Part shown: positions 6,544 through 9,744 of the stretch, piece by piece
Numbering within the stretch: the stretch's first letter is position 1
Layout: each line of letters opens with the position of its first letter
NCBI GenBank assembly: GCA_942493035.1
Contig: OW818666.1
Span: 4,129,464-4,193,463, forward strand
DNA length: 64,000 nt
Direction: 5' to 3'
From: an uncultured Spirochaetota bacterium
Lineage (GTDB): Bacteria > Spirochaetota > UBA4802 > UBA5550
Position numbers and translations under genes: made by a program
Notes under the pieces: model-generated
Told to the model about the DNA's origin: nothing
Databases searched by the model: none
The model's input: the letters and a program-made list of their open reading frames with translations, nothing else

Positions 6544-9138
6544 ATGAAAACATATGCTATTTTTTTTCAGTTAATTATTGTAGCTATGCTGTTAAATCCG
6601 CAGACACTTTTCTCTTCAATTCTTCTGCCGGAGGAAAATGATTCAGTTGCTCTTGCCGAAAAACTTTCACTGGAGTTAAAACAGAATCCTGACGGGGAAC
6701 ATATGCCGTTTTATATAAATCGACTTATGGAAATAGCCCCGGCCGTGGGGAGAAAGCAAATCTCAGCGGTGTTTAAAGATGTGGCTGCCAGGCTGAAATT
6801 AGAACCAGGAAAAGGTATCATTACCGGGCAGATTTTAAAATACTCAATCGATGAACTGGAAGGAACCAGTTCAGCAATTAACGAAAATTTCACTATCTTA
6901 AAGAGATGGAATATATCCGGTCCATGGAAGAGATATGGCAGACCCGATTATGAGTATAAATTTAATCCTGAACTGGTTTATAAAATTGAAGATATTGAGA
7001 AGGGTCGAAATTTCTCTACAGAAGAGAATGGGAAGTTATTTACCCTTGGAATAAATAATAGCGACGATAAAATTTTTTACGCAACATGCTCCTTCTTAAG
7101 TACTGGAGCTGTTATTCTGTGGATTACCGCTGATTCTGAATATAAGCTCATTATCAATGGCAAAGATATTCATAATAATAAGTCAGTTGGGAGACCTGTT
7201 GTACATGCTGTCAGGCTTAGCGGTGCCAGGGGTTATACTGTGCAGATGAAGATGTACAGCCCGGTTAGTGATAATCATCCTTACATTAAAGGGATGGTTA
7301 CAGATGAGCATCATAACAGGATTGAATTAAAATACAGTTCCGCAATCTATACATATAATTTTGAATCAGAGAATATATTCAATTCAGAAAAATCTGGAGA
7401 ATCTTTATCATCTGATGCTTCAGTCATAACAGATAAAATGAGTAGACACATCCTTAACGGTGATTTTGCTGAGGGATATAAACTTGGTCTTACTATAATA
7501 GATAAATACCCGTCATATTTTCCTGCATATAAGGTTTTTATTCCGCTACTTGATGTTATGAATAGAGAAACGGAGTTTAATCAGATTATGGATAAATATC
7601 TGAAACTCTTTCCATCATCAGATGTGCATTATAACTGGCTGGCTGATTTTTATATGACCAGAGACAGGGATAAGTTTACAGCTCTTGTCAGATCTATGCC
7701 GGTCAGATATTTTTCAAGAAATGCGTTTAAAACATACGTCTATCTGTTATGCGTAGAAAAAAAATATTCCGAAGCTGTTAACCTTTGTAAAACATTAAAA
7801 TCTGATCCGGTTTTCAATCAGATTATTCCGGAAATATTAAGAGCTTCAGGAGACAGCAATGCCTGGAGGAGGTCGCTCATCGATAGCGCTGCTGTCTTGG
7901 ATAATAACGGGCTATACTATTCGCTCGGCCTTGCAGAGAAGCAGCTCGGACTCGATCCTGTAATGTACTGGTCAAAAGGATTTTCGGTGGAGGATAATCC
8001 CGATTTGATGATGGATATCTCTGATATTTATGAAAATGGTATTATTCAGGGGAACGATTTTTATACAGGAAAGTATACCGATCTTCATCCTGAGTTCGGA
8101 TGGAACGGGAAAAAAAGGAAAATATCAATCCATCTTTTTGAATCGGGAAGAGTGGTGCTGGATGGGGAGGATATAATTCCTCCGGGTGAAAAAATCAGCA
8201 AAGAGAAATACTCTGAAGGTGGTATTGAATTCTCTTCGGGTGAGATTAAAACAGATATACCATCTGTAAGCGGGATCAGGGTTTTATACGTTTTAACAGC
8301 TAAGGATGGACTCCCCACTGCTGTTGATTTCGGATCGGCCCGTTCTGATAAAAACAGGCTTTATGTAAAATATAGATCCAGCGGTAAAGAGGAGTTCTCG
8401 GTTATTAAATATTCAGCGGAATATCTGAGTCGTGGTGAAGATGTATTCAGTTTTATTAAACAGCTTGTTTTAAAATCAGAAAATGAAAATGTCTCATGGC
8501 TTGAATATGAGGTTGTCTGTCATGGAAATTTTACCCCGGATATTCAGTATAATGGAAAACCGTTATCGCCGGGAAGATATAATGACGGGATTATCAGATT
8601 TGAGTCAAAGGAGAGATTGTCTAAAAATAATCTTAAAAATGCAGTTCTGGATATTCACAGATTTCCCGATGAAAAAACATTTGTTAAATGGTATAGCGGA
8701 GTGATAAAATATACGGAAAAATCTGCCGCCGGCATAAGTGTAATCCCCTCTGAAAATGAGAGTTTTGAAAGTATAATAAAAAATATTCATTTTAAAATCA
8801 TCTCCACCATCTCTAAAAGAGGAGTGATAAATTTCAGTCCAGGCGAAATGGAAAATATAATTAAAAATGGAGAGGGGACTGTTGAGGAGAGAACTCATCT
8901 TGCCAGAGGAATTCTTGAAAGAAGAGGAATAAAATCATTTATCGCGTTCAGTAAAAAAAGCTCAGGATTAATTAACAAAATACTGCTCTACGTTCCTGAA
9001 AATAGAGACAGAGGATACTGGCTTAATTTTTATGGTGAAGGTATTTCAGATAAGATGGAATCCGGATCTGATACTATTGTTATAACCGGAGAAGGCTATA
9101 ACACAATTCCGGTTAATCCTGAAACCTATATCAGGTAA
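6544..9138 (+). CDS. Large exported protein with TPR-like helical region and a C-terminal transglutaminase-like fold
   Basis: N-terminal signal peptide, WNISGPW, helical repeats, GTVEERTHLARGILERRGI in register with the transglutaminase core motif. Confidence 0.6.
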   Translation: MKTYAIFFQLIIVAMLLNPQTLFSSILLPEENDSVALAEKLSLELKQNPDGEHMPFYINRLMEIAPAVGRKQISAVFKDVAARLKLEPGKGIITGQILKYSIDELEGTSSAINENFTILKRWNISGPWKRYGRPDYEYKFNPELVYKIEDIEKGRNFSTEENGKLFTLGINNSDDKIFYATCSFLSTGAVILWITADSEYKLIINGKDIHNNKSVGRPVVHAVRLSGARGYTVQMKMYSPVSDNHPYIKGMVTDEHHNRIELKYSSAIYTYNFESENIFNSEKSGESLSSDASVITDKMSRHILNGDFAEGYKLGLTIIDKYPSYFPAYKVFIPLLDVMNRETEFNQIMDKYLKLFPSSDVHYNWLADFYMTRDRDKFTALVRSMPVRYFSRNAFKTYVYLLCVEKKYSEAVNLCKTLKSDPVFNQIIPEILRASGDSNAWRRSLIDSAAVLDNNGLYYSLGLAEKQLGLDPVMYWSKGFSVEDNPDLMMDISDIYENGIIQGNDFYTGKYTDLHPEFGWNGKKRKISIHLFESGRVVLDGEDIIPPGEKISKEKYSEGGIEFSSGEIKTDIPSVSGIRVLYVLTAKDGLPTAVDFGSARSDKNRLYVKYRSSGKEEFSVIKYSAEYLSRGEDVFSFIKQLVLKSENENVSWLEYEVVCHGNFTPDIQYNGKPLSPGRYNDGIIRFESKERLSKNNLKNAVLDIHRFPDEKTFVKWYSGVIKYTEKSAAGISVIPSENESFESIIKNIHFKIISTISKRGVINFSPGEMENIIKNGEGTVEERTHLARGILERRGIKSFIAFSKKSSGLINKILLYVPENRDRGYWLNFYGEGISDKMESGSDTIVITGEGYNTIPVNPETYIR

Positions 9139-9151
9139 GTTACCTGATATA
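9127..9151. terminator. Inverted repeat between convergent genes; likely terminator
   Basis: TATATCAGGTAA-G-TTACCTGATATA, 12-bp arms spanning the stop of the 864-aa gene. Confidence 0.5.
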
Positions 9152-9160
9152 TTCTATTCT

Positions 9161-9259
9161 TTACTTAGCTGCTAATTTCGCTTTCAGAGCTGCTTTTTGT
9201 CTCTTAATTCTTTTCTTTGCTCTCTTTCTTTTTATAACTGGCTTATACTGTTTTCCCAT
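9161..9259 (-). CDS. Small very basic protein (32 aa), function unknown
   Basis: Below the ORF-track cut-off. GGAGG RBS upstream of ATG 9259; MGKQYKPVIKRKRAKKRIKRQKAALKAKLAAK; a TTGACA lies further upstream. Confidence 0.75.
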   Translation of the reverse strand: MGKQYKPVIKRKRAKKRIKRQKAALKAKLAAK

Positions 9260-9429
9260 GTGAATCCTCCGGATTTTAGTTACTTTTTGCATAAGAAATA
9301 AATACACAGACTTTGTCAATAAGAATAGTTATATGAATTTAATTACTTTAGTAAGTACACTTAAGCTGGTATTAAAAATGATCGCTGCCGCGCCAAAGGC
9401 GCGGGGAGACAGAATGCCGCAGGAATTAC

Positions 9430-9744
9430 TTACTTTGTCTCGTTCCTTATCCATTTTAAAAAATCTTCGTTACCGTCAATAATCGGAACGGCTACTATGC
9501 ATGGGCAATCGTAGCTATGGAGAGTCTTAACATTCTCTATAAGTTCGCTGACAAGAGCCTTTTTGGTTTTAGCTATCATGATTACCTCTTCACCGGTTTC
9601 GATTTTTCCCTCCCAGTGATAGATCGATTTCATGTTATTTATTATATTGACGCATGCTGCAAGCTTTCGTGATACAAGGTTCCGTCCTATTATTTCAGCC
9701 TCCTCCATGGAGCTTGTTGTTATGTATACCATACATTCTGTCAT
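9430..9744 (-). CDS. cutA: Divalent-cation tolerance protein CutA
   Basis: VYITT, LVSRKLAACVNI, SIYHWEGKIE, LHSYDCPCI. Confidence 0.95.
   Translation of the reverse strand: MTECMVYITTSSMEEAEIIGRNLVSRKLAACVNIINNMKSIYHWEGKIETGEEVIMIAKTKKALVSELIENVKTLHSYDCPCIVAVPIIDGNEDFLKWIRNETK

Follow-up and report, generated by a model that had tools for sequence, protein, structure and literature searches.

A conserved single-copy gene for a tiny hyperbasic protein in Spirochaetota, a candidate lineage-restricted ribosomal protein

The window (the whole 64,000-nucleotide stretch of DNA that was analysed, from an uncultured Spirochaetota bacterium) carries on its minus strand a frame of 32 codons, situated between cutA and a longer gene that runs towards it from the opposite strand. 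The features of the locus are as follows.

6544..9138, plus strand: convergent gene for an 864-residue protein whose hydrophobic N-terminal segment resembles, by eye, a signal peptide, and in which a TPR-like region matches Cdc16 (E = 4e-5)
9127..9151, no strand assigned: hairpin between the two convergent stop codons, a probable bidirectional terminator (terminator scan, fold, congeners)
9161..9259, minus strand: coding sequence of the 32-residue hyperbasic protein, stop codon included (translation, orthologues, dN/dS)
9266..9270, minus strand: Shine-Dalgarno sequence GGAGG (position, orthologue comparison)
9283..9300, minus strand: conserved block TATTTCTTATGCAAAAAG, which probably contains the -10 region and the beginning of the 5' UTR (six-genome alignment of the genus)
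9314..9319, minus strand: -35-like TTGACA, attributed to the gene's own promoter (position, congeners)
9430..9744, minus strand: cutA (CutA1; PF03091, E = 3e-37), upstream of the small gene

The minus-strand frame begins with ATG at 9259-9257, ends with TAA at 9163-9161, and its exact translation is MGKQYKPVIKRKRAKKRIKRQKAALKAKLAAK. The earlier note on this DNA had described a 32-residue protein with 15 basic and no acidic residues, and the translation agrees (11 Lys and 4 Arg, no Asp or Glu). All four arginine codons of the gene are AGA. The computed average mass without the initiator methionine is 3604.5 Da for the window's protein and 3482 Da for the Brachyspira pilosicoli-type protein, GKQHRKVVKRKRALRRIKRQKDALNAKAK. 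The identical protein is present in public protein collections, and the orthologue of B. pilosicoli P43/6/78 (an exact match to one of the Brachyspiraceae sequences) is deposited as hypothetical protein BPP43_07190. In public records the family is labelled just "hypothetical protein" or "unknown".

The Shine-Dalgarno sequence lies 6 nt 5' of the ATG, where the earlier note had placed its GGAGG ribosome-binding site. Most orthologues show GGAGG or a near variant (GGGGG, GGAGA, AGGAG) irrespective of the start codon, with a few weak sites among them, while a perfect GGAGG precedes just ~7% of the long open reading frames of the window's genome (with crude start calls). Further upstream, the TTGACA hexamer is found 54 nt 5' of the ATG and is invariant in five congeners; it is also present 45-60 nt upstream of the gene in other genera (loci L013, L015, L016 and L017). 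This hexamer had been pointed out before and is indeed there. A consensus scan found no complete sigma-70 promoter on the minus strand and no consensus -10, and the best -10 at a 17-nt spacing from TTGACA is TCTTAT. Across six genomes of the genus the block TATTTCTTATGCAAAAAG hardly varies and is better conserved than the synonymous sites of the coding sequence, and we infer for it a -10 and transcription-start role. The blocks TTGACAAA and TTATTTCTTATGCAAAAAG are nearly invariant in five congeners. Conservation sets in abruptly a few bases 5' of TTGACAAA, and the sequence 5' of that block is unalignable among the six genomes; this pattern fits a dedicated promoter and 5' UTR. The rare perfect Shine-Dalgarno sequence and the gene's own conserved promoter block, together with the exclusive use of AGA for arginine, would be indirect signals of high expression.

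Past the stop codon the small gene is followed, after 9 nt, by a hairpin (9151-9127) with an 11-bp stem and a 3-nt loop, which bears out the hairpin reported earlier. The centroid fold has an energy of -12.6 kcal/mol (z = -2.3), and the pairing is retained in the congeners through two compensatory changes. The terminator scan scored this hairpin for the plus-strand gene. Since the T-run is on the plus strand and the stop codon of the convergent gene is included in the hairpin, it can at best be a shared bidirectional terminator. A second, GC-rich hairpin (CCGCGCC-TTT-GGCGCGG, 9388-9404, minus strand) is located 26 nt past the cutA stop, and a TTTTT run begins 11 nt beyond its stem. The hairpin folds no better than shuffled sequences (z = -0.43) and is conserved solely in the closest congener; it may be the cutA terminator.

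The convergent gene is the one conserved neighbour. A homologue of the 864-residue protein at locus L064 matches DUF3858, TPR and DUF3857, and longer homologues carry DUF3857/DUF3858. In 37 of 58 distinct variants, from several families, the small gene has a neighbour of this type tail to tail with it; the stop-to-stop gap is mostly between -6 and +38 nt, so that the transcripts of the two genes must either overlap or end at one common hairpin terminator. The retained adjacency is probably for the most part that of a pair hard to separate, because a gap of 2-30 nt is a tiny target for rearrangement. The neighbour is absent next to the small gene in Brachyspira and in the non-spirochaete members. 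On the upstream side the neighbour changes with the lineage: it is cutA in the window's genus, nrdD/nrdG in genus g23, and fba in Brachyspira, where it lies 9 nt upstream of the small gene on the same strand. In total, cutA adjoins the small gene in 8 of 59 variants, limited to a few related genera. The context is chromosomal and non-mobile (cutA, MlaD and a RadA-like ATPase are neighbours), and no conserved ribosomal or translation gene partner was seen across the neighbourhoods compared. A leader peptide or upstream regulatory frame was considered as well and rejected, as the next gene is convergent and the hairpin lies past the stop.

The 32-codon frame is a real, single-copy protein-coding gene under purifying selection. 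A protein search returned one full-length, stop-free match in each of 29 out of 41 related genomes. The extracted frames have 28-37 codons, with ATG, GTG and TTG interchanging as starts, and give the consensus M[GS]KQ[YH]Nx[RV]xKRKRAKRR[LI]KRKKK (28-37 residues, with longer tails in a few members). Within the window's genus dN/dS is 0-0.14; the closest relative differs at 5 synonymous and 0 non-synonymous sites, and another pair at 12 versus 1. The summed entropies at codon positions 1, 2 and 3 are 13.6, 8.1 and 27.7. In close pairs of Brachyspira pN/pS is ~0.1, and 0.25 when pooled. An alignment of 36 diverse members shows no indel up to column 27; M1, Q4, K10, R13 and R20 are invariant in it and K3, R11, K19 and K22 nearly so. 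In an alignment of 31 members (A3), all but one of them spirochaete-labelled, A14 is also invariant and the aromatic residue at position 5 (Y/H) is kept. The degenerate DNA pattern encoding K-Q-[YH]-x4-K-R-x-R-A-K-x3-K-R-x-K, scanned over 185,579 species (one genome per species), gave 49 matches, 48 in spirochaete-labelled records and one in an "uncultured bacterium", against ~0.004 expected by chance (a rough estimate from the information content of the pattern). Conservation in relatives and selection on the protein, to which the earlier note had looked for a decision on the frame, thus speak for a gene.

Of the wider set of 401 Spirochaetota genomes, 96 have a match to the profile, one in each (a single match contains an internal TAG). 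The carriers belong to five families of the window's order (f1 and f4-f7) and to family f19, Brachyspiraceae, in which all 38 genomes have the gene, at loci of 24-30% G+C. With a broader profile at E <= 1, no credible match was found in the genomes taken to be Leptospira, Treponema and Borrelia, nor in several f1 genera or in f2 and f3, two further families of the window's order. Because it is absent from these families and genera, the gene is dispensable in close relatives. One apparent absence, in a congener (G006), is an assembly artefact, as its contig breaks off precisely at the neighbouring gene's 3' end. In non-carriers, distant homologues of the conserved neighbour were not followed by any remnant of the small gene.

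An HMM search of 1.84 billion representative proteins gave 37 clusters, all of tiny proteins or over-extended gene calls. One sub-branch, with the core KRKRRKxYIKRKK, is found on contigs with an ammonium transporter 85% identical to a protein of "Candidatus Acidoferrales" (Acidobacteriota). Another, divergent member adjoins a peptidase whose nearest named relatives (40-47%) are from Verrucomicrobiota and Planctomycetota, and this contig is tentatively PVC-like. With these acidobacterial-looking and tentatively PVC-like contigs, the range of the family probably extends past the spirochaetes.

The size and composition of the protein call for comparison with the known tiny ribosomal proteins, for which the bS22 sequences (Borrelia, Flavobacterium and Mycobacterium) and the uL30 extension were taken from PMC10618245. 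Elsewhere in the window's genome a bS22 of the Borrelia/Flavobacterium type is encoded, MPCGKKKKRKKIANHKRKKRRRQNRHKKK (29 codons; contig C1, 2108220-2108306, minus strand), 69-76% identical to the Borrelia and Flavobacterium proteins (tblastn, E = 6e-15). This bS22 type is present in 331 of the 401 Spirochaetota genomes, and all carriers checked, among them 38 of 38 Brachyspiraceae, have it together with the small gene. Not every K/R-rich spirochaete 30-mer is a bS22, as this genome has both. The small protein was accordingly rejected as a bS22 orthologue, given the separate bS22 and the lack of the motif MP[CS]G[KR]K.K..K...THK.RKK.R.NRHKKK. With bS22 of this type (bb0822; PMC10618245) the small protein shares general traits: both are proteins of ~30 residues, over half K/R and helical, both are encoded by stand-alone genes with a strong Shine-Dalgarno sequence and often a GTG start, and both are missed or left unnamed by annotation and escape the Pfam and NCBIfam models.

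With mycobacterial bS22 and mitochondrial mS38 the family shares size, charge and an N-terminal MG, but NF047430 (NCBIfam, E <= 10) and PF08213 COX24_C (Pfam, E <= 1; for the consensus E <= 10) do not match it, while the same two models score the M. smegmatis bS22 at 1e-14 and 3e-10. The small protein has no match in Pfam, NCBIfam, PHROGs or PADLOC. These library negatives are weak evidence, because the verified Borrelia and Flavobacterium bS22 proteins are missed by the Pfam and NCBIfam models too. Searches of the PDB with the protein (phmmer), with a family profile (A1, hmmsearch) and with the predicted helix (Foldseek) all gave 0 hits.

Profile comparisons lead in the same direction. The family profile (A3) aligns to a bS22 profile (A2) with an hhalign probability of 1.3% over 1 column, and to the single Borrelia and Flavobacterium bS22 sequences with 2.3-4.8%; against Borrelia, Flavobacterium and M. 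smegmatis bS22, eL41, bTHX, bL37, bL34, bS21, the uL30 extension, bL36 and Sra no probability exceeds 5%. For four of the targets 60 shuffled controls were run. With eL41, 17 of the 60 shuffles score at least as well as the family profile, with M. smegmatis bS22 (0.7%) 30 do, which puts the real score at the shuffle median, and with bL34 (0.2%) 45 do. The result for bS21 (1.0%, 3/60) is marginal, and not significant after 12 targets. For bTHX the probability is 1.1% over 8 columns, with no Pfam or NCBIfam match; Thermus THX has the pattern GKGDRRT..GK..RG..GK.RPR. The resemblances seen by eye, to eL41 (RRLKRK), to the N-terminus of bL34 and to the C-terminal helix of bS21, are best read as compositional, because the real scores are not above those of the shuffles. 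To judge from these comparisons, the family is unrelated in sequence to every known tiny ribosomal protein tested.

What remains are likenesses of kind. eL41 (25 residues, eukaryotic and archaeal) is a single basic helix of similar length, with RRLKRK and basic residues all round, but it belongs to other domains of life and has no conserved N-terminal GKQY segment. bTHX (Thermus, Bacteroidota), bL37 (mycobacteria) and the Borrelia uL30 extension are likewise tiny, lineage-restricted and basic, and bTHX starts with MGK as the small family does; the hhalign probabilities for these are nevertheless <= 1.1%. The earlier note had compared the protein to bS22 and bTHX as a lineage-specific protein: the conservation, the lineage restriction and the class of size and composition hold, and membership in either family does not.

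No ribosomal protein was found to be missing from the window's genome for the small protein to replace. Canonical bL34 (E = 5e-13), bL35, bL36, bL33, bS20 and bS18 are present, together with a bS21-like frame and a short uL30. A diverged bL34 and a split bS21 were rejected as identities of the small protein, as canonical copies exist and the similarity does not exceed that of shuffles. As to an equivalence with the uL30 N-terminal extension or bL37, uL30 is long only in Borrelia-like genomes, and is short in the carriers and equally in Treponema, Leptospira and the other non-carriers tested, so there is no complementarity with the presence of the small gene. Separately from this, two genomes (G144 and G151, 99-100% complete) of a genus taken to be Leptospira-like (g50) have no match to Ribosomal_L30 (PF00327) at E <= 0.001. 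Sister genera of the same family have uL30, which suggests that the genus has lost it.

The AlphaFold2 model computed from the family alignment is a single continuous helix spanning residues 7-31 (mean pLDDT 92), preceded by the conserved GKQ[Y/H] segment. On the helical wheel the conserved K10, R11, R13, K15, K19, R20 and K22 point in all directions, and A14, L/I18, L25 and L/I29 form a narrow hydrophobic stripe. Conserved basic residues on all faces of the helix are what is expected of a peptide enclosed by folded RNA, as in eL41 and bS22, whose helices are enclosed by RNA (PMC10618245). Such a pattern would not be expected of a one-sided reader of a DNA groove, of a membrane-active peptide or of a polycation without fixed register. 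The conservation and the model together suggest a specific structured partner rather than non-specific coating.

We therefore regard a ribosomal role as the best single explanation of an all-face basic helix that is encoded in single copy, with a strong Shine-Dalgarno sequence and its own promoter, and that has a patchy range. From sequence and model we infer RNA binding, most probably to rRNA, and membership of the ribosome. In this proposal an independently transcribed and strongly translated gene would yield, after removal of the methionine, a polycation of 31 residues (3.6 kDa, ~+15), which would fold as a long α-helix behind a short GKQ[Y/H] N-terminus. The helix would be buried in a pocket of structured RNA; as the genome also has bS22, the ribosomal site would not be the bS22 pocket. 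The patchy distribution over several lineages would be comparable to those of bS22, bTHX and bL38. Against the proposal stand the lack of similarity to any ribosomal protein family searched, the lack of conserved adjacent translation genes, the absence from close relatives, and a complete set of ribosomal proteins among those looked for; moreover, DNA or another RNA would be an equally possible ligand for so basic a helix. Neither a Brachyspira ribosome structure nor any mention of the small family was found in the literature searched. On balance, we give a lineage-restricted rRNA-bound protein outside the bS22 pocket slightly less than an even chance.

The most serious competitor, unlikely but far from negligible, is a nucleic-acid-binding polycation outside the ribosome, be it a nucleoid-associated DNA binder (the other option named in the earlier note), an RNA chaperone or a subunit of another ribonucleoprotein. 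A net charge of ~+15 would suit such a protein, and losses in many related lineages are easier to accept for an accessory one. The extreme K/R/A content recalls chlamydial Hc2 and H1-like polycations (PF07382): the window's protein ends in an H1-like third (ALKAKLAAK), and the distant members P0057, P0059 and P0063 have long A/P/K-rich tails like those of HU/H1-like proteins. Hc2/H1-like coats, however, are repetitive and variable in length, whereas the core of the small protein is non-repetitive, with fixed register and length and invariant positions, and it has no match to HC2 or any other Pfam family. The conserved basic residues are all round the helix and not on one groove-binding face, and there is no dimerisation element longer than about two heptads.

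A closer variant of the ribosomal reading would place the protein in the bS22/eL41 pocket at the subunit interface, as an alternative second occupant that acts as a functional paralogue under some conditions. Other bacteria are known to have alternative paralogues of ribosomal proteins. In size, helicity and composition the protein is like eL41 and bS22 (PMC10618245), and RRLKRK resembles eL41 by eye, but the eL41 likeness is that of the shuffles, the probabilities against Borrelia/Flavobacterium bS22 are 1-5%, and both genes are kept in all carriers checked, with no reciprocal loss; such an occupant is improbable. Somewhat less probable still is a role at the RNA level, in which the transcript would overlap the 3' end of the convergent DUF3857/DUF3858 gene and act by antisense or transcriptional interference, the peptide being secondary. 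The very tight tail-to-tail arrangement, kept in several families while the upstream neighbour changes, would speak for such a role. What is selected, however, is the protein sequence, while third codon positions are free to vary; Brachyspira and the members outside the spirochaetes have the protein although this neighbour is missing, and the small target for rearrangement can explain the adjacency; no Rfam family scored above threshold (one sRNA match was sub-threshold). Least probable, and very improbable in absolute terms, is a cationic toxic or antimicrobial peptide of type I toxin-like or bacteriocin-like character. The short cationic helix with its narrow hydrophobic stripe is of the right kind, but there is no hydrophobic segment or signal peptide, and no leader, immunity or export gene or antitoxin RNA nearby. 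The gene is also single-copy in a chromosomal, non-mobile context, is universal in Brachyspiraceae, and gives no PADLOC or PHROGs match.

Returning to the rRNA-bound protein, a fuller claim, that of a new bacterial ribosomal protein family meriting a bS or bL number and occupying an rRNA site that is empty in model ribosomes, is one that we advance only as a tentative possibility, more guardedly than rRNA binding itself. Tiny, hyperbasic, lineage-restricted proteins are a known kind, while this sequence family is new and unnamed. Gene callers and family models routinely overlook such proteins. The Borrelia proteins bS22 and bL38, both tiny and non-annotated, were found only by cryo-EM (PMC10618245), and the latest additions to the bacterial ribosome, bS22, bL37 and bL38, were all accidental finds in cryo-EM maps. 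Here a candidate defined by sequence precedes the structure, namely a conserved single-copy helix of 3.5-3.6 kDa with position-specific conservation. The carriers include cultivable Brachyspira, among them veterinary pathogens treated with pleuromutilins, which target the ribosome. If the protein is ribosomal, it would be a new lineage-specific component near some rRNA site and a new family for annotation pipelines, present in all Brachyspira and a large uncultured order of spirochaetes, and it would extend the run of ribosomal proteins known from cryo-EM only. If it is not, it would still be a small conserved protein that binds nucleic acid and apparently occurs in more than one phylum.

The diverged form with KRKRRKxYIKRKK would, if the ribosomal proposal is true, carry the family into Acidobacteriota-like and tentatively PVC-like bacteria. 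Some distant members have A/P/K tails resembling Hc2/H1-like polycations; one of them, P0057 from a soil metagenome (55 residues; loci L094, 1271-2950, and L095), has a long A/P/K-rich C-terminal tail. In Bacillus, the arrangement of an NYN/YacP nuclease gene with a sigma gene sits beside ribosomal and rRNA-maturation genes. As a single observation, the P0057 gene is followed directly by a gene for an NYN/YacP (Rae1-like) nuclease and a sigma-70 family gene.
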